Assembly (NCBI GenBank): GCA_963751595.1
Contig: CAVVVC010000004.1
Span: 73,262-137,261 of the forward strand
Direction: 5' to 3'
Length of the DNA stretch: 64,000 bases
Source: an uncultured Gammaproteobacteria bacterium
GTDB taxonomy: Bacteria > Pseudomonadota > Gammaproteobacteria > Pseudomonadales > JAHEGP01
Shown: one piece after another, positions 41,814 to 60,999 of the stretch
How the letters are laid out: each line of letters opens with the position of its first letter
How positions within the stretch are numbered: position 1 is the stretch's first letter
Translations under genes and position numbers: made by a program
The notes under the pieces: generated by a model
What the model saw: the letters and a program-made list of their open reading frames with translations, nothing else
Told to the model about the DNA's origin: nothing
Databases searched by the model: none

Positions 41814-42392
41814 TCAGCCTGCCTTGCAACGCCGCGCCAGGCCACCCAATCCCAGCAGGGCCGAGCCGAACAACCACACCGCGGCGGGCAGGGGAACTTC
41901 CGATACCGTCTGGGCAGAGAAGGTCAGGCCGGTTTCGTTAAATACGAAACTGCCCGGGGTGTCGTCAAAGCCAAGCAGGGTGAGGGTTCCCGTCGCTACA
42001 ATCTCCAGCAGGCCGGCATCGGTTTGTGACGCGGTGCCACTGCCGAGGATAAAGCTGGCCAGCGGGGCACTGCTGACATTCCACAATGTCGCCCCGGAGG
42101 CCGGCGCTGTGATAGCTCCCGTGGCATCCCAGGATATCGGGTTGGCGAAGGTTGCTGCTGAACCAGTGGGGACAAGTCCGGCAAAGTCGTCTGTTGTCAC
42201 GGCCACCTGGGCGAAGGTAATAGCCAGGTCGCCTGCTCCGCTGTCGGGCAGGTTGCCGCTGGTGGAACTTGTTCCAAAAAAGGCAATAGTGCTGCCTGCG
42301 CTGATCTGTGCCGCCGATGCCAGCGATGCACACAGCAACAGGCCGAGTCCAAAGGCGATCTGTTTTGCTTGTCGAATCCTTGTGTTGATCAT
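41814..42392 (-). CDS. PEP-CTERM (VPLPA-type) sorting-domain protein
   Basis: Signal peptide ...LLLCASLASAAQ, a Gly/Ser/Thr/Ala-rich body, and the C-terminus VSEVPLPAAVWLFGSALLGLGGLARRCKAG (motif, TM helix, basic tail). Confidence 0.85.
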   Translation of the reverse strand: MINTRIRQAKQIAFGLGLLLCASLASAAQISAGSTIAFFGTSSTSGNLPDSGAGDLAITFAQVAVTTDDFAGLVPTGSAATFANPISWDATGAITAPASGATLWNVSSAPLASFILGSGTASQTDAGLLEIVATGTLTLLGFDDTPGSFVFNETGLTFSAQTVSEVPLPAAVWLFGSALLGLGGLARRCKAG

Positions 42393-45203: not shown

Positions 45204-45470
45204 GACCGAAAAAGCGGATACACGGTCCGCTGTGGCGATAGCCAACACAAGTTGTAAGGCGAGGAACACGGCGGTGAGGAAGCTGAATCAGGAACACACA
45301 GGGAGAACATGACGGCGGAGGTGTCACCAATCGAAGCTCGGGTATTGTTACCCGTGGCAAGCGCACCGTGAATAACAACTATCGTTTTCGCAAACGATAT
45401 AGAGACGACAAAGGTAACAGCACAAAACCCGGTCCAATTGAAATCTGACGTTAATGAGGTGGAAAATAAA

Positions 45471-46388
45471 ATGAAAATACCATTCCCTAACACTTGGTCT
45501 TGCAAGCGTTTCACTCTTTGCAAGCGACAGGCTGTCTCGCTGCTTGCTATTCCCCTGTTATGCCACAGTGTCTATGGCCAGGCGGCCGTGTTACTGCTGG
45601 AGGGTCCCATTAGCGCTTTGACTGATGATGGTGACGGCACGGGGAGCATTACCGTAATGGGGGTCACTGTCGACATTCCTGTCGGGACGCCCATTACCAC
45701 GCCGACAGCCTCGCTGGGTATCACGGCTGCCGCCAACCCTTCGGTTCTACCCGGTCGAACCCAGGCCGGCTTTGTTGGTGGTACGGCCATTATCGAGGGC
45801 AGCGGTGATCTTGCTGGCGGCTACAGCGCAGACTCGGTGTTTCTGGAGCCCGCCGAGAATATTCTGGGTGCCGCAACCACTTCACTGCCGGGTGAATCCC
45901 TGCAAGTAGCCGGTGTAGCACTGAGCCCCACCGGCGATGCGCGCATTCCGAATGGCCCCTTCACCAATGTTTTCGGCTTCGAAGTAGACCCCGACAGTGT
46001 GCCTCAGGGTTCTGGTGTTGTCTCTGAGGGCTATCTGTCCAATGATGGCAGCGGGGTGATGAATTACTTCGCGATTGAAGTCGATGGTGGCACTCTGGTC
46101 AATGCTGGCATCACCGAGGTCAGTATCTCCCGGGCGCAGTGCCAGGAAGATCCGGGGAACCCGATTGAGCTGCGAGTACAAGGAGCGGTCCATGATTTCG
46201 CCCCGAGCGATGTAAGCATTACCGATGGCGGGTCGCAGGTGCCCTTCGGCACCGTGACACCCGTCGCAGATGTTGCTCCCTTCGGCGTCTATTCCTTTGT
46301 TTTGAGGGGTGATGCCGCCTTTACAGTCTGTCCAACCAGTGTCTCGGCGACCTTTAATGGCGTAACCACTACCGCGGCGGTGAACTAA
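45471..46388 (+). CDS. secreted protein, unknown family A (untagged paralog)
   Basis: ORF 45438..46388. The ATG at 45471 follows the RBS gaggtgg. The N-terminus is hydrophobic. It aligns with 46417..47661 through LLLEGPISA..GSITVMGVTVDIP.GT.ITTPTA..PGRTQAGF.GGTAII...EPAENILGA...FGFEVDP...TEVS..RAQC..IELRV.G.VHD...FGTVT.VADV.PFGVY and ends (..TTTAAVN) where the neighbour's tag begins. Confidence 0.8.
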   Translation: MKIPFPNTWSCKRFTLCKRQAVSLLAIPLLCHSVYGQAAVLLLEGPISALTDDGDGTGSITVMGVTVDIPVGTPITTPTASLGITAAANPSVLPGRTQAGFVGGTAIIEGSGDLAGGYSADSVFLEPAENILGAATTSLPGESLQVAGVALSPTGDARIPNGPFTNVFGFEVDPDSVPQGSGVVSEGYLSNDGSGVMNYFAIEVDGGTLVNAGITEVSISRAQCQEDPGNPIELRVQGAVHDFAPSDVSITDGGSQVPFGTVTPVADVAPFGVYSFVLRGDAAFTVCPTSVSATFNGVTTTAAVN

Positions 46389-46416: not shown

Positions 46417-47661
46417 ATGAAACACCTGACATCAGTTTTTCTGGGAAAAAATCGTCTGCAGCTGGCAGCGGGGATCACATTTATGGTGCTGAGTTTTCCA
46501 GCTAGCGCCGTGCCTCTGTTGTTGGAGGGGCCGATCAGCGCCATATCGGCAAACCCCGATGGCTCTGGCAGCATTACCGTACTGGGGGTTGTCGTCGACA
46601 TTCCGGCGGGAACCAGCATTACTACGCCGACTGCGACCCTTAGCATGAACCAGGCAGTCAACACCACCCCGCTACCCGGGCGTACACAGCCTGGGTTTAT
46701 TGGTGGCACAGCCATTATTGCAGGCACCTCGGTGGCGAGCGTCAATACCGCAGATAGCCTGTTTATGGAACCCGCTGAAAATATCCTCGGGGCCGATGTG
46801 ACTTCGACTCCCCCCGATGCCATTGCAATCGCCGGCGTCCCGATGGTGCCCATCTCTGATGTTCGCCTGCTCGCCGGCCCAGTGACCAATGACTTTGGCT
46901 TCGAGGTCGATCCTGCCACAGTGCCCAGCGGCGTTGACGCGGTCGCTGAGGGGTACTTTTCCAACGATGGCTCCGGTGCGTTCCAGTACTTCGCTCTAAC
47001 AGCCTCGGGAGGCGATATCCTCAACCCAGGCGTTACCGAAGTAAGCGTTATCCGTGCCCAGTGCAGGGCAGGGGCCACGCCCGCCGATCCCATTGAACTG
47101 CGAGTGCTGGGCGGCGTGCATGACCCCGCCGGTGGCACGGTCACCATCAGGGACTGGGGACCAACCACATTCGGTACGGTGACGGCCGTCGCTGATGTGC
47201 CGCCCTTTGGAGTCTACGACTTTCGAGTGCGAACCGGCTTCACTGTGTGCCCGTCCAGTGTAACCGTGGAGTTCAGCGGTGCATCCACAGTGGCCGCGGT
47301 AGCGGGCGGTTCGCCCGATGTTGATGGCGATGGCGTGCGCGATGACGTGGACAATTGCGTCGATGTGGCCAATGGGCCGCTTATCCCCGATGCCGGTGGT
47401 TTTATCCAACGCGATACCGACGCGGATGGTTTTGGCAATATCTGCGATGCGGATCTCAGCCAGGACGGTACAACAGTAGTGAACCTCAGTGACTACGCCT
47501 TGTTCAGGAGCGCATTCGGCGATACCGCACCGGGCACGGAGCCTTATGGGCCAGTGGATCATGCAGATTTTACTGGAGACGGAGTGGTTAACCTCTCCGA
47601 TTTTTCAATATTCCGGGCGCAATTTGGCGGTGAGCCTGGTCCCTCGGGGTTGAATCCGTAA
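46417..47661 (+). CDS. secreted protein, unknown family A, with C-terminal TSP3/dockerin-like module
   Basis: 414 aa. Signal peptide ...MVLSFPASA. It is a paralog of 45471..46388. The last 119 aa (47302..47658) are the shared module: DVDGDGVRDDVDNC...DTDADGFGNICDADLSQDG..VNLSDYALFRSAFG...ADFTGDGVVNLSDFSIFRAQFGGEPGPSGLNP. Confidence 0.85.
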   Translation: MKHLTSVFLGKNRLQLAAGITFMVLSFPASAVPLLLEGPISAISANPDGSGSITVLGVVVDIPAGTSITTPTATLSMNQAVNTTPLPGRTQPGFIGGTAIIAGTSVASVNTADSLFMEPAENILGADVTSTPPDAIAIAGVPMVPISDVRLLAGPVTNDFGFEVDPATVPSGVDAVAEGYFSNDGSGAFQYFALTASGGDILNPGVTEVSVIRAQCRAGATPADPIELRVLGGVHDPAGGTVTIRDWGPTTFGTVTAVADVPPFGVYDFRVRTGFTVCPSSVTVEFSGASTVAAVAGGSPDVDGDGVRDDVDNCVDVANGPLIPDAGGFIQRDTDADGFGNICDADLSQDGTTVVNLSDYALFRSAFGDTAPGTEPYGPVDHADFTGDGVVNLSDFSIFRAQFGGEPGPSGLNP

Positions 47662-48544
47662 GGTCAGGCAAGGCGATGCTGTGCAGTCAGGTATCTCAAG
47701 ATGCACCGCACGAAGCAGCGGCGGAAGTGTCTTGAATCAGGGCCACGGTGAATACACCCTGTACCGCTTCAGCCCATGATGGGCTGGTAGCGAGATATCG
47801 TGGCACGGCGCCGGCAATCAGCCGTAGGAGAAAATCGATAAGAGCATTGAAAACAGAGGCAAACATAAAGGTGTGTCTGTATCGCCAATCCAGCGGGGGC
47901 TGCGTAGCCGCTAATTGTGACAGGTGGTCCCGCCTGACAATGCCTTCGCTGCTCTTGCCAGCTTTGGTTCCACAGGCTTTACAGGCGGGAGTCAGGGGAG
48001 AATAAATACGGGGCCTGGGTTTCTAACAGGTAAAAGCGCCACACTTTAATGAGCTCAAGGCGTTGGTGCATGCCACCAGGCATCATCCTGTAGTGTATTC
48101 CTGGTCCTCGAGCGCGATACCGACATAGCGCCCAGGCGCTGGAAATGGATAGCGACGATGTATTCGATTGCCTCCCGCAGCAGGGCTGAAAAGCCTTTGC
48201 ATTACAGATCCTGCCCCCGATGAGGATAGTCTGGGTGGTCCTTCGTTGCTGGACTTCATCCCGCAGCTAGTAGCTAGCCGGCCGCGTTCCAAGCCAAGCC
48301 TAAATTTGACGCGCTTTCACGGGTTTTGCTCGGGGCGGCCTGTGCCGTCGAGGAAGCGGCTGGCTTTCTGTTGGCCGGCTGGGAGGAATTAGGCTGACAG
48401 CGTTGAAGCGCAGGGGAGGCCAGGAATCAGCGGCGAAATGGGCTGGAATTAGCGAGAGAAACTCAGCGATGGCGCGCAGTACTATGCCAGCATGCTTTTA
48501 CAACGTTTACGGACGCATAAAGAATGCTAGGAGGCGCTTTAGTT

Positions 48545-48713
48545 GGAATGGCACTTACTTAAGGAGAAGGGCATAGGATTTTCGAAGCGCCGCTCCGAGT
48601 GTCTACCCCGTCAGAACACGCTGTAAACCCGCCCCTGGGGGCTCTGCGCCGACATCCCTGTCGGCGAAGGTCCTGCCGATAGACACCCGAATCGGCTTAA
48701 GTCAGTGCCATTC
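48545..48713. mobile_element. MITE-like palindromic element (169 bp) inserted in regulatory-module copy 2
   Basis: The terminal inverted repeats are ggaatggcacttacttaag (48545-48563) and cttaagtcagtgccattc (48696-48713), matching at 17 of 18 positions. The flanking 9-bp direct repeats are gctttagtt and gctttcgtt. The interior is an imperfect long palindrome (for example cgccgaca-tccc-tgtcggcg). The element is absent from the homologous site in copy 1 (tcgctttcagg, ~43484). Confidence 0.65.
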
Positions 48714-48728
48714 GCTTTCGTTGGTTAC

Positions 48729-48848
48729 TGTATAAAATCTCCACACCCCTATAAATACAAGGGCTTTAATGACTTAATAAATTACTTCAATAAATCATCG
48801 GGTTATGTCAATAACAGGTGCCAATCATAACTGTAAAAAGTTTCGACA
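48729..48848. promoter_or_regulatory. two copies of the TGT-N11-ACA motif, module copy 2
   Basis: TGTATAAAATCTCCACA (48729-48745) and TGTAAAAAGTTTCGACA (48832-48848), with the same spacing as in copy 1. Confidence 0.5.
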
Positions 48849-49244
48849 ACACTCACTTAATGTGCTGACAACCTACCCCGTCCAGTCCGTGACCATTCTA
48901 AATCTGTGCTTACCCAATCGATTCCGCGCAGCTGAAAAAGGTATCAGCGTCCAAAGAACCGCCGATGTGTTGCCAGCGGGCGGTGGTAAAACCGGTGTCA
49001 TTATTATTCACGGGGCGTGGCACAAGCAGCCTGACTGGCAGCGATATCATCCTTAAATTTCCGGCATTTTCGATCAGCAAAGCTGGAAATTACGATTCAC
49101 TACAATCTTGATGCCGAGGGTCTTATCCAAAAATAGCTATACAGAATCTATGGAATGTAACTCGCTATTTTATAGGTGCGAGTGGGGTGCTTGCCTCGGC
49201 AAACCTATCCAGCTTTCGAAGAACCACTGAGACATTTCGTTGAG

Positions 49245-49261
49245 TGTCGGTATTTTTTACA
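49245..49261. promoter_or_regulatory. inverted TGT-N11-ACA motif, module copy 2
   Basis: TGTCGGTATTTTTTACA, identical to 44674-44690. It lies 78-94 bp upstream of the sigma-54 element at 49339. Confidence 0.55.
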
Positions 49262-49338
49262 TATTACCGGGGGACAAGGTCGATGCGCTAGCAATGGCTT
49301 GCGCCAAGCTCTTGTTTTACTAACTTTTATGCCACCGA

Positions 49339-49354
49339 TGGCATGCCCCTTGCA
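49339..49354 (+). promoter_or_regulatory. sigma-54 promoter (-24/-12), operon B
   Basis: TGGCAT-GCCCC-TTGCA lies ~270 nt upstream of the ATG at 49625. Confidence 0.75.
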
Positions 49355-49624
49355 AGAGCACTAGCACCAGGCGTCTTGCTGCTCAATATATTAATCATAA
49401 AGTGAGCGACCCACGATGTACCGATACGTCGAAGATAGAAACCTAACCAGAAGGCACTGTTGCGCCTCGTCGCCGTGGCGCAATGCAAGCCGTGCCGCTT
49501 CGACGGCTCGTGTGTTTGAAGGCACCTCAAGTGCTGTGCTGCTTTTCAATGCGACTCCCCCAGCGAGGCCGCCAGTGCATTTGGCATAGTTAATCATCAT
49601 CCAAAAAAACATGAGGACTCAGGG

Positions 49625-52207
49625 ATGAAATTGAAAACCAGGCAGGGTCTACCCGGCCCAACGACGTTATTACACTGCAGCTATACGACTTTGTTGGTCA
49701 GTCTGCTTGGATACTCGCTTCCAAGCGTCGCCCAGGCACCACCGCCATTTCCGGCGCTTGCCACCATCGCCGTTCCCCAGCCCCTCGACCTCAACCAGTT
49801 TGTTAGCAATCAGTTCGCGGCGGAGGCACTGGGTAAGGCGCTGTTCTGGGATATGCAACTGGGAAGCGACGGGGTGCAGGCCTGTGCCAGTTGCCACTTT
49901 CATGCCGGGGCAGACAATCGCACGGTGAACCAGATCAACCCGGGAACCCTGGGCAATGACGACCAGTTTGGTAACAATCGGCTCGGGTTGTTGGAACCGG
50001 CCCCGGGTGCGGTGCGGCTGAACCAGGAACTCACCCCGGCGCATTTCCCTCTGCACAAACTGAGAAACCAGCATGCCGTCGGCGAGCCGGGGAACAATGA
50101 GAGCAATGTGGTGGTTGACAACAACGACGTAGTGTCTTCCCAGGGCGTTGTGCTCATGGACTTCGTCGATATTCAAATCGGTAATCCGGTTGATATCGGC
50201 GCTGCGGTGGTTGATCCGGTTTTCAATGTCAACGGCACTAACGTCCGCCGGGTCGAGCCTCGTAATACCCCGACGGTCATCAACGCGGTATTCAATTTCG
50301 AGAATTTCCACGACGGTCGCGCCAATAATATTTTCAATGGCAATAACCCGTTTGGACCCGCTGACCCCAGGCCCCACCTGCTGAATAATGAAACCGGTAC
50401 GCTGGTTCCGGAGGAGCTGCGGCTGCGCCACTCCTCGCTGGCTTCCCAGGCAGTGGGACCACCGCTGAGCGATTTCGAAATGTCGTGGCGCGGTCGGACC
50501 TGGCCCAAGGTGGGCAAGAAAATGCTCAGCCTGGAGCCGCTGGCCCAGCAGGCGGTGTCTCCGGATGATAGTCGCCTGGGCAACGTGGCCGACACTTCCG
50601 ATGGAGCAGGATTAATCCCCACAGTCTCCTATGCTTCCTTGATCCAGTCAGCCTTCCCGGCAAAATACTGGAATAATACCACCGAGAAGGTGGTCTACGA
50701 TGCCAGTGGCGATCCCAGCTTTTTGCCTGGTCCCGCGGATCCTCTAAATACTAACGAATACACCCAAATGGAGGCCAACTTCTCCTTCTTCTTCGGTATC
50801 GCCCTGCAAATGTACCAGGCCACGCTCGTTGCCAGCGCTTCCAAGGTGGACAAGTTCATCGACGGCAGTGGCGCACTCACCAACGAAGAACAGCTGGGTA
50901 TGGATGTGTTCGCCAACGACGGCAACTGTCTGGCCTGCCATGGCGGCGGCACCTTGATGGATGTTGATACCGCACTTATCCAGGGCGTCGACCCGACCGG
51001 TAACCCCGTCCTTTTCGATCAGAATCCCTTGTTCGCCAATGAGTTCATGCAGATCGCCACGGGTTTTGGCCTCTATGATAACGGCTTTCACAATACCGGG
51101 GTGCGCCCCACGGGTAACCCGGCAGCGCAGGCATTTGATTATCTGGCTGTCAATGAAGACGTGGGGCGGGGCGGTATGACAGGTCTCGGAGGAGGCCTCA
51201 CTGAGGTTTCCCTGTCGAAGGGTATTCTGGGCTTGCAGAATACCGGCGGCCCTACACTGCAAATGCCCGGGCTGGCGCCATTGCCCGGCTATATGGCCGA
51301 ATGGGTGCCGCCACTGCCACTGGGTTTCTTACCCAATGACACCAACCCAATACCGGGGAGGGTCACCAACTTCGGTGCCTTCAAAACGCCTGGCTTGCGC
51401 AATATCGCGCTGCAGGGTCCCTACATGCATAACGGTGGCCTGTCGACCCTGCGCCAGGTGGTCGACTTCTACGTGCGCGGTGGCGACTTCCCTTTGACCA
51501 ATGCCCATAACTTCGATTCCGAGGGCATGACGGTACTGCCCTTGTTGCGCGACACCGGCGCGGTGCCCGGGCAGCCGACACCGGAACAACTGCGAGACGC
51601 ACTGGTGCAGTTTATGGTGGCCTTGACCGACTCCCGGGTGGCCAACGAGGAGGCACCCTTCGATCATCCGGAGTTGTTCGTACCCATTACCGGCACTGCG
51701 CCAGTTACCCCCGGTACCCGCGCGCTGCTGCTGGCAGACACTACCAATTTCCGCCAGGTCCCGGCTGTAGGCAGTGACGGTCGCAATGCGCTGTTCCTGC
51801 CCCCGCTAGGTACCTTTCTGGGTCTGAACCCCCGTAGCGCCAGCATTGTTGCCGATGCTGACCTCGATTTGATTGCCGACAACCTCGACAACTGCGAGGA
51901 CGATGCCAACCCCTTGCAGGAAGATGGCGAAGGGGATGGCGCGGGTGATGCCTGCGATAACTGTGTTGCCGTGGCCAATGCCGATCAGCGCGATACCGAT
52001 GGCGATGGCTTCGGCAATATCTGCGATGCGGACCTGAACAACGACGGCAACACCAACCTGACCGACTTTGGCCTTTTTCGAACTTCTTTCGGTGCGAGCT
52101 CGCCGTTAAGTCCGGCAGAAGAAAATGCGGATTTGAACGGCGATGGCACGGTGAACCTGAGCGACTTTGGCTTATTTCGGAGTATGTTCGGCCAACCACC
52201 GGGGTAA
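49625..52207 (+). CDS. di-haem cytochrome c peroxidase / MauG-family protein with C-terminal TSP3/dockerin-like module
   Basis: 860 aa with a signal peptide. Two CxxCH sites (ACASCHFHAG and NCLACHGGG). Family blocks LGKALFWDMQLGSDG and FKTPGLRNIALQGPYMHNGGLSTLRQVVDFY. The last 118 aa (51851..52204) are the shared module. Confidence 0.85.
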   Translation: MKLKTRQGLPGPTTLLHCSYTTLLVSLLGYSLPSVAQAPPPFPALATIAVPQPLDLNQFVSNQFAAEALGKALFWDMQLGSDGVQACASCHFHAGADNRTVNQINPGTLGNDDQFGNNRLGLLEPAPGAVRLNQELTPAHFPLHKLRNQHAVGEPGNNESNVVVDNNDVVSSQGVVLMDFVDIQIGNPVDIGAAVVDPVFNVNGTNVRRVEPRNTPTVINAVFNFENFHDGRANNIFNGNNPFGPADPRPHLLNNETGTLVPEELRLRHSSLASQAVGPPLSDFEMSWRGRTWPKVGKKMLSLEPLAQQAVSPDDSRLGNVADTSDGAGLIPTVSYASLIQSAFPAKYWNNTTEKVVYDASGDPSFLPGPADPLNTNEYTQMEANFSFFFGIALQMYQATLVASASKVDKFIDGSGALTNEEQLGMDVFANDGNCLACHGGGTLMDVDTALIQGVDPTGNPVLFDQNPLFANEFMQIATGFGLYDNGFHNTGVRPTGNPAAQAFDYLAVNEDVGRGGMTGLGGGLTEVSLSKGILGLQNTGGPTLQMPGLAPLPGYMAEWVPPLPLGFLPNDTNPIPGRVTNFGAFKTPGLRNIALQGPYMHNGGLSTLRQVVDFYVRGGDFPLTNAHNFDSEGMTVLPLLRDTGAVPGQPTPEQLRDALVQFMVALTDSRVANEEAPFDHPELFVPITGTAPVTPGTRALLLADTTNFRQVPAVGSDGRNALFLPPLGTFLGLNPRSASIVADADLDLIADNLDNCEDDANPLQEDGEGDGAGDACDNCVAVANADQRDTDGDGFGNICDADLNNDGNTNLTDFGLFRTSFGASSPLSPAEENADLNGDGTVNLSDFGLFRSMFGQPPG

Positions 52208-52248
52208 TAGCGCGCTGCTGTGAAGACAGAAAAACAAGGATAATAAAA

Positions 52249-53484
52249 ATGAAACTTTCTGAAAACGCTGCGTCTCATTGTCCCCGAGCGGGGGGCGCAG
52301 CAAAGGCGGTGTTACTGGCTGTTCTTCTCGCTGCAGGCCCCGCCCAGGCGGTGCTGGTGGATTTCGGCCCCATTGATCCTTCGCACGGTTACCCTCTGTG
52401 GTACCGCGGCGCAGATGGTCTTGGCCTTGAATTGTGCCTCAGCGAGGCCGCCGCCAATGCTGCTATTCCGGGTAACCTGCTTTGTCTGCTGGATCCAGGT
52501 GAAAGGCAGGAGCCAGGCAATCCGTTCATATCCTACCCGGATAATTTCTGGCCGGAGGTGTTCTGGACCCGGGTAGATGCAGAAACGCCCACAGCTTTGG
52601 GTAGTGCATTGTTGGTAACGGCCTTGGAGGGGGCATTTTTCAATGAGGAACCGGTCGCCGGCGAAAATATCAGCTTTGCCCGCATTCGCGTTCGTATCGA
52701 CAACCCGGTCGCGGGCGCAGACCTTAAGGTCACCCATCCTTATGGGGTATTGACCTTTGAGAATCAACCTGCGGGCCTGCGGGCCATCAATTTTACCAGC
52801 GATGTCGGAATACAGGCCACACCACCGCCGCCCAGCGACTATACCGGAGCACTGGGTGGCAGCATCGGACCTTTCCTGCGCTGGACCGCTCCGGACTTCC
52901 CGGTACTGGATCAGAATGGTGTCGCTTACATTGGCGATCCCAATATTCCCCATACCGTGACGGGCAGCCCGCTGGGCACCAACTTTTTCAGAGTTGAAGG
53001 GCCAGTGGGGTTAGGCAGCCCCGGCGCGCCCAACCTCTGTGCCGACCCGCTATTGGGTGACGATCCGACGGATTTCACCGATTGTATCGAGACCGACCTG
53101 TTTGTGGGTTCCGGGAAAATTGCTGATTCCGACGCCGATGGCAGCCAGGACCATGCCGACAATTGTCCCGCTGTAGCTAACCCGGGACAGCAAGATAACG
53201 ACCGCGACGGGCTGGGCAATGCCTGCGATAACTGCATTGATGTAGCCAACGCCGACCAGCGCAATACTGGCGCCAACCCGGCTTTTGGCAACATGTGTGA
53301 TGCCGATCTCGACAATAACGGTGTGGTAAATTTGGCCGATTATAGCCTGTTCAGGTCGGAGTTTGGGTCAGTAGAGCCTTTGAGCGCGGCGCAAGAGAAC
53401 GCAGACTTCGACGGTGACGGCAATGTCAATCTCGGCGACTTCAACCGCCTGAGGACAATGTTCGGAAAGGCCCCGGGGCCATGA
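52249..53484 (+). CDS. secreted protein, unknown family B, tagged
   Basis: 411 aa with a signal peptide ..LLAAGPAQA. Family-B blocks: GYPLWYRGADGLGLELC, FARIRVRIDNPVAGADLKVTHPYGVLTF, IGPFLRWT, HTVTGSPLGTNFFRVEGP, DLFVGSGKI. The last 120 aa (53122..53481) are the shared module. Confidence 0.85.
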   Translation: MKLSENAASHCPRAGGAAKAVLLAVLLAAGPAQAVLVDFGPIDPSHGYPLWYRGADGLGLELCLSEAAANAAIPGNLLCLLDPGERQEPGNPFISYPDNFWPEVFWTRVDAETPTALGSALLVTALEGAFFNEEPVAGENISFARIRVRIDNPVAGADLKVTHPYGVLTFENQPAGLRAINFTSDVGIQATPPPPSDYTGALGGSIGPFLRWTAPDFPVLDQNGVAYIGDPNIPHTVTGSPLGTNFFRVEGPVGLGSPGAPNLCADPLLGDDPTDFTDCIETDLFVGSGKIADSDADGSQDHADNCPAVANPGQQDNDRDGLGNACDNCIDVANADQRNTGANPAFGNMCDADLDNNGVVNLADYSLFRSEFGSVEPLSAAQENADFDGDGNVNLGDFNRLRTMFGKAPGP

Positions 53485-53566
53485 AGGACGCAGCACCGAT
53501 ACCAGCCAGACACATTGGGCCGTTTTGGTCTAGGAACAAAATATTTCAGGTTGCGGAGAATATAAG

Positions 53567-54865
53567 ATGAAAACGTTCAGACTATGGCTAGTGTCAAGTA
53601 CGCTGCTGATTGGCTTGGCACAGACCGGCTTGGCTGCCTGCCCCGCCGATGGCGCCAAGCCCATGAATATAGGGCCCCACTCCGCGCAGACCACGTTTCC
53701 GCTCTGGGTGCAGGACTCCGAGGGGTTGGCGCTGGAGATTTGCCCGGGAACTGATGCGGTTAACTGCATCTCGGTACCACCCTTCACCGCGGCCGATTTC
53801 CCCGGCGACCCGGATGCCGCCGCAAAAGCCGCGTTATCGCAACAGATAGGGTTTGGCGACGAGGGTTTCTGGGCCTCTGCGGAAACCAGCATTGCTTTAC
53901 CCGGCGGTGGGCAGGCTTTGCTGGTGTCCGCGGTTGAAGCCGCCTTCCTGCCGGATTTTGCCCCCGGAAACCAGGTTCCTTTCACCCGACTGCGTCTTCG
54001 CATCGACATCCCGCAGGACGGCACCTATATCGTCACCCATCCCTGGGGCCAGATCACTTACGACATCGTCGGCGCCGCCAATAGCGGGGATATCAACGAC
54101 TCCTTCGATATTCCCTTCGCGGCGGACCAGGTTGGCTACCAGGGTCGCATCGGCCCCGTCCTGACTTGGGACACTTTTCCCGACGATCCACTCCTCAGTG
54201 GTGGCGCTTACATCGGTACATTGGCCGTAGATCGCCCGGTGAAGGGTAGCCCCTGCGGCACCAATTATTTTCGTATCGAGGGCCCGAACATTGGTGGGAA
54301 CGGCATCGATTTTATCCAAACCGACCTGTTTACAGTCACCGGTAAAGTGTACACCGGCGCGTTACCGACACCGCTGGAGGTCAGTCAGGTGAGCTACAGC
54401 CGCGCTGCCAGTGGCAGGGTCAATGTGTTCGCCGAGGCGCCCACTCAGGCAACCGTGAGTTTTAGTGGTGGAGGTGATCTGCCCGCCGGTCAACTGCCCA
54501 TGACAGGAGACGGCAGCGGTCGCTTTTTTGGCAGTGTGGCGCTGGCACCGGGGGCGACACTACCGGCCGAGGTGACCGTCACGGCAAGCAATGCTGCGGT
54601 AGGCGCCCAACCGGCCGAGACCGTCAACCCCCTGGTTGACCTGGTTACCATTTCCCGGGCGGAATTTGATTACGCGACCGGTGATCTGACCATTGAGGCC
54701 CACTCCAGCGACGAGGTCGCGCCACCCGTGCTGTCCGCCCTGGGGCAAAACCTTAGCAACGGCGTGTTGAGCACCAATTTGATCGTTGCCCCGCCGACGG
54801 TGACCGTAAGTTCGTCTGCGGGCGGTTCCGCCACCATCCCAGTGACAGTGATTCACACCCCATAA
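53567..54865 (+). CDS. secreted protein, unknown family B, untagged
   Basis: 432 aa with a signal peptide ..IGLAQTGLAA. Blocks: FPLWVQDSEGLALEIC, FTRLRLRIDIPQDGTYIVTHPWGQITY, IGPVLTWDT, VKGSPCGTNYFRIEGP, DLFTVTGKVY. It ends VTVSSSAGGSATIPVTVIHTP, at the position where the next gene (..VTVSSSAGGLATSLVAVVNSADEDGDG..) continues into the module. Confidence 0.85.
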   Translation: MKTFRLWLVSSTLLIGLAQTGLAACPADGAKPMNIGPHSAQTTFPLWVQDSEGLALEICPGTDAVNCISVPPFTAADFPGDPDAAAKAALSQQIGFGDEGFWASAETSIALPGGGQALLVSAVEAAFLPDFAPGNQVPFTRLRLRIDIPQDGTYIVTHPWGQITYDIVGAANSGDINDSFDIPFAADQVGYQGRIGPVLTWDTFPDDPLLSGGAYIGTLAVDRPVKGSPCGTNYFRIEGPNIGGNGIDFIQTDLFTVTGKVYTGALPTPLEVSQVSYSRAASGRVNVFAEAPTQATVSFSGGGDLPAGQLPMTGDGSGRFFGSVALAPGATLPAEVTVTASNAAVGAQPAETVNPLVDLVTISRAEFDYATGDLTIEAHSSDEVAPPVLSALGQNLSNGVLSTNLIVAPPTVTVSSSAGGSATIPVTVIHTP

Positions 54866-54886
54866 GCGCAGCCGGAGACTGATAGA

Positions 54887-56614
54887 ATGAACAATAAAAT
54901 AGACAAAACCATGGTCCCGGTCTTGCTTGGTTTGCTCTTGAGCTCGACCACCAGCAATGCTGCGGATTTTTTTGCCGGCCCGCCGAACCCCAACAACGGT
55001 TTCTCGGAATACTTGACCGACGCCAATGGGCTTGAGTTAGAACTGTGCCTCGACCCCGCCTTCTGCCTTTTCGACCCTTTAGATCCGACCAACGATTTTT
55101 CAAATCAGATCGGCTTTGGTGCGGAAGGCTTCTGGTGGCTGGCCGAACCCGACACATCCGGCTTCCCGGGTACCATCGGGGCCACGCTGGTGCTTGCTGC
55201 CGAGGCCGCATTTGCCGCGGAAGTTCCCATTGATGGCGACCAGTTCCCCTTCACCCGGTTGCGCATTCGCCTGGATCTCCCGGTGCCAGGGATCTACCGC
55301 GTAACCGAGCCTTATGGGGTACACATTTACACCGTCACTGCCGTGGGTGCGGGCCTCGAGGTCAACGAAAGCTTCGACGTGCAGTTTAACCAGGGCACCA
55401 TCGATGACCAGGGCAATGTGACGGAAGCCGTCAACACCTATGGCGGCCCCTGGCTAACCTGGGATACCTACCCCAATGATGCTGCACTGGAAAACACCGG
55501 TGACGGGGTCGCGGATTTCATTGGTGACGGTGCCACCCCGCATGCGGTTATCGGTAGCCCCGCTGGCAACAACTTCTTCAAAATCGAGGCGTTTTCGGAC
55601 GCAGCCTTGACCGTCCCCTTGAACACCTTCGACCCAGGTGATGGCGATGACGATGGCAGTGCCAACAGTGTCACGGCCAGCCTGTTTACCGTGGTGGGTA
55701 AAGTCTACGACGGTCGACTCGCCACGGCAATGAGCGCCGAGCGCCTTACCTACTCGCGGGATGCCGGCGGTACCGGGCAGGTCGATGTATTCACCCGGGG
55801 CGCTGCGACCGCTAGCGTGACAGCTGCGGGCGGTCCCAATCTGGGCGGGCCTTTCAGCTTACTTGCGGATCAGGGCAACTTCTTTTTGAGCCAGCAGTTG
55901 ACGCCCAACGCGGTGGCATTGCCCTCTTCGGTAAACATTGAGGCAACCGATACGACCGCTGATCCGACCCGCTTGATTCAATCGCTGTCGGATTTCGTGA
56001 GCATTACGCGTGCGGAATATGACCTGGGAGCTTCGCCTCCGGCCCTGACCATCGAGGCTGCATCGAGCGATGCCCTGACTCCGCCGGTGCTCACGATCGT
56101 CGAGCTGGATCAGCCGCTGACTGCGGGCAGTGCAGTTATCACTGAAACGGCGGCGGGCGACCCGATCGCACCGCCTGCCTTGGTTACGGTGAGCTCCTCC
56201 GCCGGCGGACTTGCGACCAGCCTGGTGGCGGTGGTTAATTCAGCTGATGAGGACGGCGACGGCGTGTCTGATGACCTGGACAATTGCCCGCAGACTCCCA
56301 ACTCGGGGCAGGCGGATACCGACGCGGATAGTATTGGCAACGCCTGCGATAACTGCCTGCAAGTTGCCAACACCGACCAGCGTGATACCAATGATGATGG
56401 CTTCGGTAATGCCTGTGATGCAGACCTTGACAACAGCGGAGTCGTCAACTTGGCCGACTTTCAATTGTTTCGAGGCGTTTTTGGAGAGTCGCCATTGAGT
56501 CAACTTGGAGACGATGCCGATTTTGATGGCGACGGTAATGTTAATTTGGGAGATTACGGCAAGTTCAGAAGCGTGTTTGGGCAAAAACCCGGTCCATCAT
56601 GCTGTGCGCCTTAA
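54887..56614 (+). CDS. secreted protein, unknown family B, tagged
   Basis: 575 aa with a signal peptide ..LLSSTTSNAA. Blocks: FSEYLTDANGLELELC, FTRLRIRLDLPVPGIYRVTEPYGVHIY, GGPWLTWDT, HAVIGSPAGNNFFKIEAF, SLFTVVGKVY. The last 124 aa (56240..56611) are the shared module. Confidence 0.85.
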   Translation: MNNKIDKTMVPVLLGLLLSSTTSNAADFFAGPPNPNNGFSEYLTDANGLELELCLDPAFCLFDPLDPTNDFSNQIGFGAEGFWWLAEPDTSGFPGTIGATLVLAAEAAFAAEVPIDGDQFPFTRLRIRLDLPVPGIYRVTEPYGVHIYTVTAVGAGLEVNESFDVQFNQGTIDDQGNVTEAVNTYGGPWLTWDTYPNDAALENTGDGVADFIGDGATPHAVIGSPAGNNFFKIEAFSDAALTVPLNTFDPGDGDDDGSANSVTASLFTVVGKVYDGRLATAMSAERLTYSRDAGGTGQVDVFTRGAATASVTAAGGPNLGGPFSLLADQGNFFLSQQLTPNAVALPSSVNIEATDTTADPTRLIQSLSDFVSITRAEYDLGASPPALTIEAASSDALTPPVLTIVELDQPLTAGSAVITETAAGDPIAPPALVTVSSSAGGLATSLVAVVNSADEDGDGVSDDLDNCPQTPNSGQADTDADSIGNACDNCLQVANTDQRDTNDDGFGNACDADLDNSGVVNLADFQLFRGVFGESPLSQLGDDADFDGDGNVNLGDYGKFRSVFGQKPGPSCCAP

Positions 56615-56759
56615 CCCAAGGGCATGGGCAAGGATGCCCGTTGCGAAGAAAGGTGTCGGTCGGCAACAAATAATGGAATGAAAGGCCGAAAGGGATTGGT
56701 TGTTTCAGCAAGGCTGAGTACAAAGGCATGATCTGTAAAACAGATCGGGAGACAGGAAA

Positions 56760-59700
56760 ATGAAATCCAGAAAAACAAGATCGATAACTAAGTCGGTGCG
56801 AACCGCAAAAATGGCGGGCCTATTGGGCTTGGCTGGCCTTTCGCAGACGGCCACAGCCGCCGTCAACATACCCTCGGACATGCCCGCCAGTCCACTATTT
56901 GGCGCGCAGTCCTTTGCCCAGCAAATGCTGCGTTTCGAAGAGTTCGAGGTGCGCTTGATGCCGGCGCCCGGAGCCGACCAGACGAGAACATTCGATCCGC
57001 CCAATACCTGTGACGGCAGGCCGAACCCCTCCGCTATGGAGAGCCTGCTCGACGCGCCCCTGTGGCCAGATCCAACCATAGAGGCCAATACCAGTCTGCC
57101 CAACCCCTGGGCCGGGGCTATCGATAGCTGTATCCCGGGGGTCATTCCCAGCGGGGGCGCGATAGAGGGCAGGCCGCCGGGCGTGAGTTTCTCCCACCAG
57201 CGTTATGATGAGTTCCCCCCCGCGGTATACGCCCAGAGCATGATGGGCGCTGCCCGCGCCGGCACCGGTCGCCTGGATGATGCACAAAGCCACGGCTACG
57301 CAGTGGGTGAGTTCGCACCTGGCGGGCTATACCACAACACCACGGGCGCCTTCGGTGGTACCTCCAATGGCACTACCGCCGGCATTGAAATCAAATTTCA
57401 CCCCTCCATGCCGGCGCAGGATCCAAACCGGCTGTGGACCTTCGGCGATGGTACGCTGCCACCGAAACTACTGAGGGCCCGCTATGGCCAGCCGATTCTG
57501 TTTCGCCATTACAATGCCTTGCCCATCAACGTTGGCGCCAACGACGGCTTTGGCGAGCACACGATCACTACCCACCAGCACAATGGCCATAACCCCGGTG
57601 AGGTCGACGGCTTTGCCGGTGCCTACTTCTTCCCTGGACAGTTCTACGACTATCGCTGGCCCATGGTACTGGCGGGTTACGACAGCATCAACGCGGATGC
57701 GCGGGATCCCCGTGCCTCTACTCCGTGCTCAGCGGGCGAGGTGCTGATGATTGCCGACCCCAATACCGGCACAACCAAGCCCAAGACCTGCGACCCCGAA
57801 ACGCTAACGGTCAATATTCCGGGCGACTGGCGCGAGACCATGAGTACGCTCTGGTTCCATGACCACATGATCGACCGCACCTCGGAGAACGTCTACAAGG
57901 GCAACGCGGCGATGATGAACTACTACAGTGGCATCGATCGCGGCAAGGAAGGCTTTCGCTGCGATTATGCTGACACCCCCGAGCAGGATAATGTCAATCT
58001 GTGCTTCCCCAGCGGAACCGCCCTGGACTGGGGGAACCGCGATTACGATATCCAGTTGCTGATTGCCGCCAAGGCCTGGAATCAAAGTGGTCAGTTAGAC
58101 ATGGCGCTGGGCCTCAATGAAGATGGTTTCCTGGGAGACAGAATGACGGTTAACTGGCTGTACGAGCCGTATCTCGAGGTGCGTCCCCGCCGCTACCGCT
58201 TCCGGGTGCTCAACGGTGCCGTGGCGCGCTTCTTCAAGTTCGCTATTGTCGAGCAGGTGCAGGGTGGTGGTGGAACGTTCCAGGGCCCTCCGGGCTCTGG
58301 CGTGTCCTACAATCGGGTGCCGTACTTCATGGTTGCCAACGACGGCAACATCATGGAATATGCTGTTCCCTTTGGCCCGGGCAACCCCAATGGGGTCGAC
58401 CCGGATCTGCCGATTCAGTCAATTGCCGAAAGGTTCGATATTATCATTGACTTCGCCGGCAAGGCCGCGGGCACCAAGCTGTACATGGTAAACACCCTGG
58501 GGCATGACAATGGCCGTGGCCCCAAAGGTGTGGAGCCGCTCGCCAATATCCTCAATGGCACCTTCAGTCCAGAAATCCAACCCGGCTGCAATGACAACAA
58601 CTGCTGGTCAGACGACCCCACGCTGAGGCCCTTCCTGGAATTCCGGGTAGGCGCCTCTAACGGAGAGCCGGATTTGAGCATGGACCCCAACCTGTACGTC
58701 GCGACGGAGTTTGGTGGAGGGGGTAAAACCATGATTCCCCTGGTGCAATTTACCCAGGCGGAGCTCGATGGGGCCATCCATCGTACCTTCGACTTCACCC
58801 GGGGAGGTAATCCTGGAGAAGCAACCGATGGTCGCCAGACGCCTTGGGGTATCGTTACCGACGACGAGCCAGAAACTGGTGCTTGTTTAGATGATCCAAT
58901 CGCGAATCCGGGCACATGCTCCCGCACCGCCGACGTGAACCGGGTGTCGGCGGCCCCGGAAACCATCGGTGGCGGCGTCGAGATCTGGCACATCAGAAAT
59001 GGTGGCGGCGGCTGGGGCCACCCGGTGCATATCCACTTTGAAGAGGGCCAGTACCTGAACCGCGACGGAGCCATCCCGCCCCCCTGGGAGGTCGGCGCGC
59101 GCAAGGATATGTATCGCGTATCGGGTCTTGACGATCCCGGTAGCAGCTCGAATATCTCAGTTGCAATTCGCTTTCGCGAGTTTGCCGGTACCTACGTGGA
59201 GCACTGCCACAATACTACCCACGAAGACAAAGCCATGCTGCTGCGCTGGGATAACGAAATGCCGGGGCAAACGGTGCGCATACCGACACCGTTGCCGACC
59301 TGGGACGGCGTGGGCTATATCAGTGCCCTCAACCCACAGCCGTTTACCGACGCTACAGCAGTGGTGGAGTTACCAACCATCAAGACCGGTAACGTGGCAA
59401 TGGCGGCGGCTTCTGACCTGGACGGCGATGGCATTCTGGATAGCGTCGACAACTGTGTCATAGTCCCGAATCCGGGGCAGGAGGATGTGCTGGATATAGG
59501 TGGACCTGATGGCGTTGGCGATGCCTGCGATAATTGCCAACTGCTTGCCAACCCGGACCAGCTTGATACCAACGCCGACGGCTTTGGCAACGCCTGCGAT
59601 GCGGATCTCAACGGCGACGGCCAGGTGAACTTGGCTGACTTTGCTGAGTTCAGGGCGTCGTTCGGCACGAGCGGGAAAGATGCAGACCTCAATGGCGATG

Positions 59701-59780
59701 GCTTTGTGAATCTCAGTGACTTTTCATTGTTCAGAGCCAGGTTTGGAAGCGTTCCGGGACCGTCGGCAGGCAACCCGTAG
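56760..59780 (+). CDS. large multicopper oxidase with C-terminal TSP3/dockerin-like module
   Basis: 1006 aa with a Sec-type signal peptide. The four Cu-ligand motifs are HQHNGHN, LWFHDHM, HPVHIHFEEG and HCHNTTHEDKAMLL (CotA/bilirubin-oxidase-like HCHxxxHED..M). The last 123 aa (59409..59777) are the shared module. Confidence 0.9.
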   Translation: MKSRKTRSITKSVRTAKMAGLLGLAGLSQTATAAVNIPSDMPASPLFGAQSFAQQMLRFEEFEVRLMPAPGADQTRTFDPPNTCDGRPNPSAMESLLDAPLWPDPTIEANTSLPNPWAGAIDSCIPGVIPSGGAIEGRPPGVSFSHQRYDEFPPAVYAQSMMGAARAGTGRLDDAQSHGYAVGEFAPGGLYHNTTGAFGGTSNGTTAGIEIKFHPSMPAQDPNRLWTFGDGTLPPKLLRARYGQPILFRHYNALPINVGANDGFGEHTITTHQHNGHNPGEVDGFAGAYFFPGQFYDYRWPMVLAGYDSINADARDPRASTPCSAGEVLMIADPNTGTTKPKTCDPETLTVNIPGDWRETMSTLWFHDHMIDRTSENVYKGNAAMMNYYSGIDRGKEGFRCDYADTPEQDNVNLCFPSGTALDWGNRDYDIQLLIAAKAWNQSGQLDMALGLNEDGFLGDRMTVNWLYEPYLEVRPRRYRFRVLNGAVARFFKFAIVEQVQGGGGTFQGPPGSGVSYNRVPYFMVANDGNIMEYAVPFGPGNPNGVDPDLPIQSIAERFDIIIDFAGKAAGTKLYMVNTLGHDNGRGPKGVEPLANILNGTFSPEIQPGCNDNNCWSDDPTLRPFLEFRVGASNGEPDLSMDPNLYVATEFGGGGKTMIPLVQFTQAELDGAIHRTFDFTRGGNPGEATDGRQTPWGIVTDDEPETGACLDDPIANPGTCSRTADVNRVSAAPETIGGGVEIWHIRNGGGGWGHPVHIHFEEGQYLNRDGAIPPPWEVGARKDMYRVSGLDDPGSSSNISVAIRFREFAGTYVEHCHNTTHEDKAMLLRWDNEMPGQTVRIPTPLPTWDGVGYISALNPQPFTDATAVVELPTIKTGNVAMAAASDLDGDGILDSVDNCVIVPNPGQEDVLDIGGPDGVGDACDNCQLLANPDQLDTNADGFGNACDADLNGDGQVNLADFAEFRASFGTSGKDADLNGDGFVNLSDFSLFRARFGSVPGPSAGNP

Positions 59781-59907: not shown

Positions 59908-60999
59908 TTGTATATGCATTGTTCTCGAAATACCGCCGGATTACCTCGAGCTGCTGCTGTCATCCTCCTGTTGATCGCTGCGATGTATCTCGCAACGGTC
60001 AATTTGGCCTGGGCGAAACCGGAGTTCCCCAACGTGGTGCTGATCAACCAGGACGGAGAGCCCCTGCGCTTTTACGATGACGTCATCAAGGGAAAGGTGG
60101 TGTCGATCAACTTCATGTTTACCAGTTGTGGCGATGCTTGCCCCCTGGAGACAGCCAAGTTGCGCACGGTGCAAAAGATGCTGGGGGAGCACTCCGGCAA
60201 AGACGTGTACATGTACTCCATCACTGTGGATCCCGATCGCGATACACCCGAGGTGCTCAAGGCCTATATGCAGAAATTCGACGTTGCCCCTGGCTGGCAG
60301 TTTCTCACGGGAGACAAGGAAGACATCGACCGGGTTCGGGACGCACTGGGCATGTTGAGTGAAAACGAGCAGGAGCTTAGCGACCATGTCATCAATTTTG
60401 TGCTGGGTAATGAGGAGACGGGGCAATGGTTTCGACGCACACCCTTCGATATACCCGAGGCACTGGTTTCGGTGTTACTTGGTCGCCTCCAGCAGCACCG
60501 CCTGACGGCTTCTTCTGCCGCCGTGTTCCCGAGTTACGCCGAGAGCAAGCCTCTGCCGGCTGCCAGCCCGGGTGAGGACCTCTACAACACGCGCTGCACC
60601 GCTTGCCACAGCATCGGCGGAGGCGACAAATTGGGGCCCGATCTGTTGGGTGTTGTTGCCCGGCGTGATCACCAGTGGCTGGTTCGCTGGTTGCAGGAAC
60701 CCGATGTCATGCTGGAGGAAAAAGATACCCTGGCGATGGAGCTATTCGCCCAGTACGGCAATGTGCCAATGCCTAATGTGCAACTCACTGAGCAACAGGC
60801 GCTTGACCTGATCCAGTACATGCAGACCGAAACCGAGAGGGTGGCCGCAGCCAACCGTGCCCGGGTTCCGGCAGACAGCCTTGATGGCATTGTAACGTCG
60901 CCCCGGGAGCAACCCGGCGCTCCACCAAGCTCCACCGCCGACGACGTAGTGCCGGATCAGGCGCGCCTGGAAACTTCACCGGCGGGAGACGCTCAATAG
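59908..60999 (+). CDS. SCO1/SenC-type copper chaperone fused to a c-type cytochrome domain
   Basis: 363 aa (TTG at 59908 or ATG at 59914) with an N-terminal anchor or signal. The thioredoxin-like domain has the CxxxC motif FMFTSCGDACPLE and a downstream His (SDHVINF). The C-terminal domain has CTACHSIGGGDKLGPDL and a distal Met (NVPMPNV). Confidence 0.8.
   Translation: MYMHCSRNTAGLPRAAAVILLLIAAMYLATVNLAWAKPEFPNVVLINQDGEPLRFYDDVIKGKVVSINFMFTSCGDACPLETAKLRTVQKMLGEHSGKDVYMYSITVDPDRDTPEVLKAYMQKFDVAPGWQFLTGDKEDIDRVRDALGMLSENEQELSDHVINFVLGNEETGQWFRRTPFDIPEALVSVLLGRLQQHRLTASSAAVFPSYAESKPLPAASPGEDLYNTRCTACHSIGGGDKLGPDLLGVVARRDHQWLVRWLQEPDVMLEEKDTLAMELFAQYGNVPMPNVQLTEQQALDLIQYMQTETERVAAANRARVPADSLDGIVTSPREQPGAPPSSTADDVVPDQARLETSPAGDAQ

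Follow-up and report, generated by a model that had tools for sequence, protein, structure and literature searches.

Cohesins anchored at the cell surface are known from cellulosomes. ScaE of Ruminococcus flavefaciens is a sortase-anchored single cohesin with an LPXTG signal, while the cohesins OlpA, OlpC and SdbA of Clostridium thermocellum are anchored through S-layer homology (SLH) domains. Genomes of anaerobic methanotrophic archaea (ANME) are rich in cohesin and dockerin domains, for which a role in adhesion has been proposed (PMC5244752). The passage of that source that cites Peer et al. 2009 describes non-cellulosomal cohesin and dockerin modules as widespread and without a known function. 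Most of them have neither a partner nor a function assigned. Among gammaproteobacteria, dockerin-like and cohesin-like open reading frames (ORFs) have been noted in Saccharophagus degradans, where their pairing is hypothetical (PMC2386152). Here we describe a locus in a stretch of 64,000 nucleotides (hereafter the window) from an uncultured gammaproteobacterium (assembly GCA_963751595.1, contig CAVVVC010000004.1, positions 73,262 to 137,261). Five secreted proteins encoded in this window share a C-terminal module of ~120 aa, termed T3-Doc, and a nearby gene encodes a cohesin-like protein as its candidate receptor. Judging from sequence, predicted structure and genomic linkage, we consider it likely that the two work together in surface display, as a non-cellulosomal cohesin-dockerin pair that an exosortase would anchor.

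The T3-Doc module

The five modules were located where the first-pass annotation had placed them, each forming the 3' terminus of a long + strand ORF. They occupy positions 47302-47658 in a family A protein (ORF 46417..47661), 51851-52204 in an MbnH/MauG-like di-haem enzyme (49625..52207), 53122-53481 and 56240-56611 in two family B proteins (52249..53484 and 54887..56614), and 59409-59777 in a multicopper oxidase (MCO; 56760..59780). The tag had been described as attached to three unrelated scaffolds. Its portability was confirmed, and the scaffolds number four, namely family A, family B, the di-haem enzyme (the peroxidase of the earlier description) and the MCO. The five copies align over 138 columns, 42 of which are invariant, with 53-60% identity to the first copy. 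When 11,807 six-frame ORFs were searched with a hidden Markov model (HMM) built from them, the five window ORFs were recovered with E-values from 1e-42 to 5e-61, and chance is therefore excluded as the origin of the likeness. The weakest of these values belongs to the family A protein, where the match runs to the stop codon; the di-haem enzyme was recovered at E=1e-56 and the second family B protein at E=5e-61. Because the mean column identity at the DNA level is only 66%, with differences scattered over the whole module, the copies are best read as old paralogues retained by selection on the protein. Recent duplication or gene conversion was ruled out on the same observation.

The proposed architecture, TSP3-like (thrombospondin type 3) and then dockerin-like, was borne out. 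In Pfam, both TSP_3 (PF02412) and Dockerin_1 (PF00404) matched all five tagged proteins. Four copies reached the TSP_3 gathering score of 25 bits (26.4 to 35.1), the peroxidase copy scoring 20.5, and three reached the Dockerin_1 gathering score of 22.9 bits (27.4, 27.9 and 31.1), with 18.7 and 17.0 for the other two. The TSP3 unit of the tags contains the DxDxDGxxDxxDNC motif and the paired cysteines. Against the PDB, the five-copy profile matched the type-3 repeats of COMP (E=3e-45) and thrombospondin-2 (E=1e-34) as well as solved dockerins (e.g., 2y3n_B, E=3e-8). The consensus of 138 copies, taken from the window and related loci, has a core of one TSP3 unit (DxDxDGxxDxxDNC....N.DQ.DTDGDGFGNxCD), followed by two near-identical dockerin segments (DADLNNDG.VN..DLGL.R..F and DADFNGDG.VN..DLG..R..F) and a PPGPS tail, with 5 residues past PGP as the commonest length. 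Both dockerin segments keep the canonical D-x-N-x-D-G-x-V-N-x-x-D calcium loop in the five copies and in the 138-copy consensus. Among the NCBIfam models, MtsC and PA1041 gave partial matches only and missed every full-length family cut-off widely. NF041540 (cut-off 29) scored 29.6 on the MCO copy and 20 on the peroxidase copy, and left the remaining three unmatched.

The first-pass annotation had also called for structure prediction of the tag. An AlphaFold2 model of the MCO copy, made with an 80-sequence alignment, showed a dockerin fold joined to repeats of the thrombospondin-2/COMP type. The model has a mean predicted local distance difference test (pLDDT) score of 92.6 and a predicted template-modelling (pTM) score of 0.79, with helices at residues 75-84 and 102-111. 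Its best Foldseek match in the PDB was the dockerin 2y3n_B (E=9e-5, TM-score 0.79 on the target, root-mean-square deviation (rmsd) 2.4, 41% identity), and more than 15 further dockerin chains were matched, including 4u3s_B and 2ozn_B. Next after 2y3n_B came the type-3 wire of thrombospondin-2 and COMP (46-48% identity over ~70 columns, rmsd 1.9-2.4). The module is thus assigned, from sequence and predicted fold, as one or two TSP3 repeats, a true dockerin and a PPGPS tail.

The five tags end in QPPG, APGP, PGPSGLNP, PGPSCCAP and PGPSAGNP, each directly before the stop codon, in agreement with the (P)PG(PS) ending reported earlier. The motif is not a terminal one. In copies that stand at the N-terminus of proteins from related loci, the rest of the protein comes after PPGPS, so the motif is interpreted as the boundary of the module. 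None of the five copies has a hydrophobic or transmembrane helix or a basic tail, which upholds the distinction that had been drawn between this tag and PEP-CTERM signals.

A cohesin protein with a PEP-CTERM signal

No cohesin-like partner had been recognised in the window by the first-pass annotation. This was overturned by the ORF at 42609..43259 on the - strand, which sits 2.2 kb upstream of the tagged cluster and is divergent from it. The 216-aa product comprises a signal peptide, a single cohesin domain (residues about 27-185, ~42705-43181) and a VPLPA/PEP-CTERM signal (residues 188-211, ~42627-42698). A phmmer search of the protein itself against the PDB returned as its sole matches the ScaB cohesin of A. 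cellulolyticus (5nrk_A/5nrm_A), which were weak (E=0.49) and covered the whole domain. A family profile of 25 full-length homologues was then compared with the PDB, and its top 12 matches were all solved cohesins (3l8q_A at E=6.7e-7, 1tyj_A at 1.5e-4 and 2y3n_A at 1.6e-4 among them). The Pfam Cohesin model (PF00963) matched three of these 25 family members, with a best E=1.4e-4. In an AlphaFold2 model of the protein (pLDDT 82.2), the best 50 Foldseek matches in the PDB were all cohesins (E to 1e-9, TM-score to 0.77), including 3ul4_A, 4dh2, 5lxv_A and 2jh2_A. The assignment of the protein body as a cohesin domain needed this combination of family profile and predicted fold.

The anchor signal was identified by TIGR03370 (VPLPA-CTERM) with 33.4 bits against a cut-off of 25.35, and the tail reads VPLPAAVWLFGTGLVGLAGVARRR. 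A second VPLPA-CTERM protein of 192 aa, encoded at 41814..42392 on the - strand (28.3 bits with the same model and cut-off), is not cohesin-like, as it was unmatched by either of the two cohesin HMMs used in this work. A search of 1.84 billion clusters at 50% identity gave 3,618 representatives of the cohesin-anchor family at E<=1e-10. Nearly all of the 150 best matches are ~190-220 aa long, and 149 of the 156 top representatives end in [VIL]P.P[AGSP] and a basic tail. The cohesin profile also retrieved multi-cohesin scaffoldins with 4-8 repeats (P0301, 1295 aa; P0334, 1898 aa; P0373, 673 aa), which confirms homology with the classical systems. A classical dockerin was observed at an internal position in P0334 and at the end of P0373.

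Genomic linkage of tag and cohesin genes

A scan for co-occurrence of the module with a candidate receptor, as the first-pass annotation had proposed, covered one genome per species. The 80 best module loci, mostly from uncultured Gammaproteobacteria, were searched with an HMM of the cohesin body from which the PEP-CTERM part had been removed. A cohesin-like ORF was found in six of them (L047, L061, L076, L075, L042 and L016), always within 600 nt of the tagged gene and each with a PEP-CTERM-type tail. The hosts of these adjacent pairs include Gamma- and Betaproteobacteria, Methylomonas and a spirochaete metagenome-assembled genome (MAG). A broader cohesin HMM added two or three tandem copies in L047 and L042. 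The rate of six in 80 would be roughly that expected if a genome had one cohesin gene per 10-15 tagged genes. Tandem single-cohesin PEP-CTERM genes, two or three in number, were observed beside a tagged gene in L111 (7236-8414), L047 (5656-6783) and L042 (5982-8877), which suggests cohesin paralogues with possibly differing specificities.

The search was also made from the cohesin side. Six contigs with cohesin homologues (32-79% identity) were compared, and each of them has between one and four tagged ORFs at a distance of no more than 10 kb. In L081, L082 and L083, synteny extends over the oxidase cluster as a whole, and the flanks of L083 also match the window (ProB, Obg, L27, L21, IspB, DUF1631 and PrsK). 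As a control, a metagenome scan with a cohesin alignment seeded on the PAAVWLFG anchor motif only gave 80 generic VPLPA-CTERM loci totalling 530 kb. A cohesin-like gene is present in six of these 80 loci. Full modules number three in all (L096, L111 and L133), and each is the direct neighbour of such a gene (Fisher p=9e-4); no full module occurs in the 498 kb around non-cohesin VPLPA-CTERM genes, compared with three in the 32 kb around the cohesin ones. The other three cohesin loci, which lack a module, are contigs 1.3-4.3 kb in length. Tag and cohesin genes are thus linked in both directions and across diverse lineages.

The same loci could be read in another way, with the module as a self-sufficient, calcium-dependent domain that binds or stabilises the matrix, and the cohesin-like protein as a co-regulated matrix protein instead of a receptor. 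In such a case, calcium bound in the loops of the TSP3 and EF-hand units would form a bridge to acidic exopolysaccharide (EPS), or the module would simply stiffen and protect the secreted enzymes. The module does contain many calcium ligands, an EPS locus and the regulators PrsK, PrsR and PrsT adjoin the cluster, and a cohesin gene is not adjacent in most module loci. In relatives of family B, adhesion modules of the cadherin-like or Big_9 kind moreover take the place of the tag, suggesting a general adhesion role. We nevertheless judge this explanation unlikely, as the C-terminal half of the module is specifically a dockerin fold with duplicated-segment architecture. The linkage is likewise specific to the cohesin-bearing subset of PEP-CTERM genes in the control comparison above, and synteny is kept over about 60% divergence of the cohesin protein.

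Spread, cargo and position of the module

A word-filtered protein search with the module profile returned 1,468 proteins at E<=1e-5. The few matches with a named organism are mostly uncultured Gammaproteobacteria, including Thiogranum, and the relatives are MAGs of uncultured Gammaproteobacteria. The first-pass annotation had held that a generic, widely scattered repeat with no enrichment in the cluster or lineage would speak against a dedicated tag. Such a pattern was not observed, as single MAGs contain 7 to 12 or more tagged loci among the 80 best (at least 12 in SGMAG-18, 11 in SGMAG-48 and 9 in SRP268394_co1_214). The cargo in related loci is highly varied and includes peptidases (PA-domain, M14, S8, C25 and M4), together with GH16, secretory lipase, Exo_endo_phos, glucose/sorbosone dehydrogenase, FG-GAP, BNR and di-haem peroxidase proteins.

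This range of cargo bears on a further possibility, that the dockerins bind each other or another domain of the tagged proteins, for instance in families A and B. The oxidases would then assemble into a soluble complex of several enzymes, and the PEP-CTERM cohesin would have no part in it. In the cluster, tagged members of families A and B take turns with untagged paralogues, and the MCO, the di-haem enzyme, the SCO1-cytochrome c protein and families A and B are conserved as a set, as would be expected of such a complex. The tag is found elsewhere on lone hydrolases, apart from the oxidase set, and no second cohesin-like domain was detected within the window by either cohesin HMM. We regard a soluble complex of this kind as quite improbable.

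Of 136 ORFs with a near-complete module, 117 have it at the C-terminus, no more than 30 residues from the stop, 15 have it at the N-terminus and 4 at an internal position. In the 15 N-terminal cases, the order is signal peptide, module, PPGPS and catalytic domain. Such copies were observed in L003, L004, L014, L016 (10286-11566), L020, L023, L034, L037, L050, L051, L052 and L069, and their proteins are lipase-like, M23-like peptidase, beta-helix, MCO, PQQ-type (pyrroloquinoline quinone) dehydrogenase and cytochrome c-like proteins. The class of C-terminal sorting signals (PEP-CTERM, GlyGly-CTERM, LPXTG and the C-terminal domain of type IX secretion) was rejected for the module, which has no hydrophobic helix or basic tail, has a helical dockerin fold instead of a beta-sandwich of ~80 aa and is N-terminal in 15 of the 136 ORFs. 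The least probable explanation, and a very doubtful one, is that the module serves as a secretion or sorting signal for the type II secretion system, a calcium-repeat route resembling the type I secretion system (T1SS) or a sortase-like enzyme acting at PGPS, and is then removed: it usually stands at the extreme C-terminus, commonly with 5 residues past PGP, it occurs on many unrelated exoproteins and calcium repeats come before the C-terminal signals of T1SS substrates, whereas the N-terminal copies follow a Sec signal peptide and precede the catalytic domain, signal peptides of the Sec type are seen by inspection in each of the five window proteins, the module lacks a transmembrane segment or basic tail, and no dedicated transporter is conserved beside the tagged genes in the compared contigs. 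Of the three roles suggested earlier for the tag (sorting, anchoring or assembly), anchoring and assembly fit all the evidence, and sorting does not, since 15 of the 136 modules are N-terminal. Being position-independent, without a transmembrane helix and with a dockerin fold, the module is better described as a binding module than as a signal read from the C-terminus.

Proposed mechanism

In the cohesin-dockerin display that we favour, T3-Doc would act as a docking domain with a calcium-loaded TSP3 stalk, a two-segment dockerin and a PPGPS boundary. The tagged proteins, all five of which have Sec-type signal peptides by inspection, would be exported by Sec, and the module would fold only in calcium, that is, outside the cytoplasm. 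Its near-identical dockerin segments would bind the single cohesin domain of the 42609-43259 protein. As the segments are so alike, binding might take place in two symmetric orientations. The TSP3 unit would serve as a rigid stalk, or as a stabiliser of the dockerin like an X module. Given its VPLPA/PEP-CTERM signal, the cohesin would be a substrate of the XrtA exosortase, and processing would leave it attached to the cell surface or the exopolysaccharide matrix. The outcome would be one socket for many plugs, tethering here a copper/haem oxidase set (the MCO, the MbnH-like enzyme and families A and B) and, in other genomes, proteases, glycosidases, lipases, nucleases and dehydrogenases. In this way, the Gram-negative bacterium probably keeps enzymes attached to its cell surface or slime, much as cellulosome bacteria do with cellulases.

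Several observations weigh against this mechanism. The cohesin-like protein itself has no match to the Pfam Cohesin model even at E<=10, matching only PEP-CTERM, and an exosortase gene was not found in the window. In 74 of the 80 module loci, there is no cohesin gene within 10 kb, and any pairing of tag and cohesin must therefore act in trans. The tag-rich MAGs SGMAG-18 and SGMAG-48 yielded no cohesin in the loci sampled. In public collections, dockerin-like modules are often found with no evident cohesin to match, according to the passage of PMC5244752 that cites Peer et al. 2009. The model also gives no route for folded cargo across the outer membrane, and it assigns no role to the PPGPS..P tail, which is strongly conserved and which classical dockerins lack.

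A broader claim can be put forward tentatively, with somewhat less than even confidence. It holds that a widespread and hitherto undescribed display system of environmental Gram-negative bacteria uses exosortase-fixed cohesins of ~200 aa to capture TSP3-dockerin exoenzymes, forming in this lineage the scaffold of an extracellular copper/haem 'oxidosome'. Two loose ends would meet here, the role of non-cellulosomal dockerins and cohesins and the purpose of exosortase/PEP-CTERM cargo, and both PEP-CTERM proteins and non-cellulosomal dockerins would gain a concrete, testable function. If so, the slime matrix would be a programmable enzyme scaffold. If tag and cohesin do pair, Gram-negative bacteria of sediment and soil would retain secreted oxidases, proteases and glycosidases on their surface or matrix instead of losing them to diffusion. 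Matrix-bound enzymes would then be predictable from sequence alone, and at this locus they would amount to a tethered extracellular copper/haem oxidase set. The pair would also provide a compact, calcium-switchable plug and socket (about 120 aa and 160 aa) for Gram-negative surface display.

Genes of the tagged cluster

The tagged genes belong to a co-directional run at 45.4-61 kb of the window, all on the + strand. It begins with an untagged family A gene (45438..46388, 316 aa), a paralogue of the tagged one that follows it. The di-haem enzyme (860 aa) matched CCP_MauG at E=5e-19. Its top NCBIfam match was the MbnH family, below the cut-off, and its best PDB match was 6e1c ('Di-heme enzyme'). 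Next comes the first tagged family B gene, whose tag was identified by Pfam, alignment and the module HMM, and an untagged gene of the same uncharacterised family (53567..54865, 432 aa) separates it from the second. The MCO (1006 aa) was recognised through Cu-oxidase_2, and its closest PDB entries were of the bilirubin oxidase and CotA type (E=1e-21); a look-up of its exact sequence gave no match. It is followed by an untagged fusion of an SCO1/SenC copper chaperone and a cytochrome c (59908..60999; Pfam SCO1-SenC and Cytochrom_C), and an SCO1-cytochrome c gene also adjoins a tagged MCO in L086. Promoter and terminator scans gave no excess over shuffled sequence, and Rfam had no match in the window, nor in its two ORF-poor stretches at E<=0.1.

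No match for families A and B was found in Pfam, NCBIfam or the PDB. Family B was considered as an MbnP-like copper protein on account of its MbnH-like neighbour, and this was dropped as no MbnP-type NCBIfam model matched. Its relatives either lack the C-terminal region or have there a TSP3-dockerin, a cadherin/Big_9 module or PF22352. Untagged family B proteins (~432 aa) were also observed in cultured Pseudomonas (P0501 and P0510, from Pseudomonas sp. BN515 and P. taiwanensis), which would offer a tractable host for working out the role of the family. The arrangement of an untagged paralogue directly beside tagged ones, seen in both families (45438-46388 and 53567-54865), is kept in L081-L083, and such pairs may form hetero-oligomers with a single tethered subunit.

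Two ORF-poor stretches were observed. The first, of 2.2 kb (43260-45437), separates the cohesin gene from family A and includes, at ~44926-45170 on the + strand, what is left of a sixth TSP3-dockerin module, now frameshifted. The module HMM matched ORF 45009-45200 at E=3.8e-4, and tblastn with the peroxidase and MCO tags matched 45024-45149 and 44926-45018. The remnant translates as ...GFSKVCDADFDG and then, in another frame, as DLDDFGRIRSVFG...DADHADLDDGGAVDLDD. In the same stretch, ORF 44199-44426 opens with ...RVKANRGAAGIDASTVEKF, which we take to resemble the N-terminal part of a reverse transcriptase from a group II intron. A tagged gene in this stretch may have been destroyed by a mobile element. 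The second stretch (47662-49624), between the tagged family A and di-haem enzyme genes, spans 1.96 kb without an ORF of at least 100 aa, and tblastn detected no remnant of the cluster genes in it. A gap of equal size is present in L081 (4212-6073) and L082 (4217-6076) and can be aligned over most of its length, the window having an insertion of ~170 nt at ~48560-48730. In L083, the gene order differs and a counterpart of the gap is absent.

Exopolysaccharide and exosortase context

The first part of the window (1-34063) is an EPS locus of the exosortase type, with many GT2 and GT4 glycosyltransferases, a polysaccharide lyase, a DegT aminotransferase and an O-antigen-ligase-like protein (PEP_O_lig_1). 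It is broken by two transposase genes of the same DDE family, one of full length (3538-4962) and one truncated (8324-9448). The locus also encodes PrsT, PrsR and PrsK, regulators of the XrtA/PEP-CTERM system (27964..34063, - strand), which are located ten kb upstream of the cohesin gene and adjoin the glycosyltransferase-rich part. PrsK (TIGR02916, 626.8 bits, cut-off 300) and PrsR (TIGR02915, 680.4, cut-off 502.6) both exceed their equivalog cut-offs, and PrsT (TIGR02917) falls just under its own with 299.8 bits against 312.2. At the other end of the cluster, a 258-aa secreted protein encoded at 61021-61797 ends in VPLPPAFAMFGSALMALVAFLLGRKNWFFGRNSGD, a PEP-CTERM-like tail by appearance; no Pfam or NCBIfam model matched it, PEP-CTERM models included. 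An anchor-like protein likewise comes after the SCO1 gene in L086.

Comparison with known systems

The cohesin protein of the window resembles ScaE, OlpA, OlpC and SdbA in being a small, predicted surface protein with one cohesin, a C-terminal signal for envelope anchoring and a matching cohesin fold, to which dockerin-bearing proteins would attach. It differs from them in its anchor, a Gram-negative VPLPA/PEP-CTERM exosortase signal instead of LPXTG or SLH. A cellulosome was rejected as a description of the locus, as the window has a single cohesin, no multi-cohesin scaffoldin, no carbohydrate-binding module and no cellulases, its cargo being the MCO, the di-haem enzyme and unassigned families. 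By analogy, the system would work like the anchoring end of a cellulosome and is not itself one.

The tag shares with type I and II dockerins (PF00404, including X-dockerin) the same fold and the two segments of ~22 residues, each a calcium loop and a helix. Unlike these, it has in every case one or more disulfide-type TSP3 repeats in front of it and the conserved PPGPS..P tail behind it. Its near-identical segments would be compatible with a dual binding mode, and the TSP3 part may take the stabilising role of the X-module. Like thrombospondin, COMP and bacterial TSP3 proteins (OmpA-family, MtsC and PA1041-type), the tag has the D-x-D-x-D-G-x-x-D-x-x-D-N-C calcium 'wire' with paired cysteines; unlike them, it has 1-2 repeats fused to a dockerin and no OmpA or MYXO-CTERM context. 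The NCBIfam family NF041540 ('GC-type dockerin domain-anchored protein') is similar in having a curated C-terminal dockerin-like anchoring domain on assorted secreted proteins, and differs in that its model leaves three of the five window copies unmatched.

A full-text literature search, whose scope left out most subscription journals so that a prior description is possible, found no paper joining cohesin, dockerin and PEP-CTERM. Dockerin and exosortase occurred together only in the ANME review, where the terms are unrelated, and nothing was found on the GC-type dockerin. As in the NagH/NagJ toxin complexes of Clostridium perfringens and in archaeal/ANME proteins, cohesin and dockerin would be used here outside cellulose degradation, and a likeness to non-cellulosomal pairs was seen among the fold matches (2ozn_B in the dockerin search and 2jh2_A in the cohesin search). 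Unlike those pairs, the window system has a PEP-CTERM anchor and a TSP3-fused dockerin. The cohesin-dockerin kind itself is known, and the proposed system would add to it anchoring by an exosortase, fusion of the dockerin to TSP3 repeats and cargo that is not cellulolytic.

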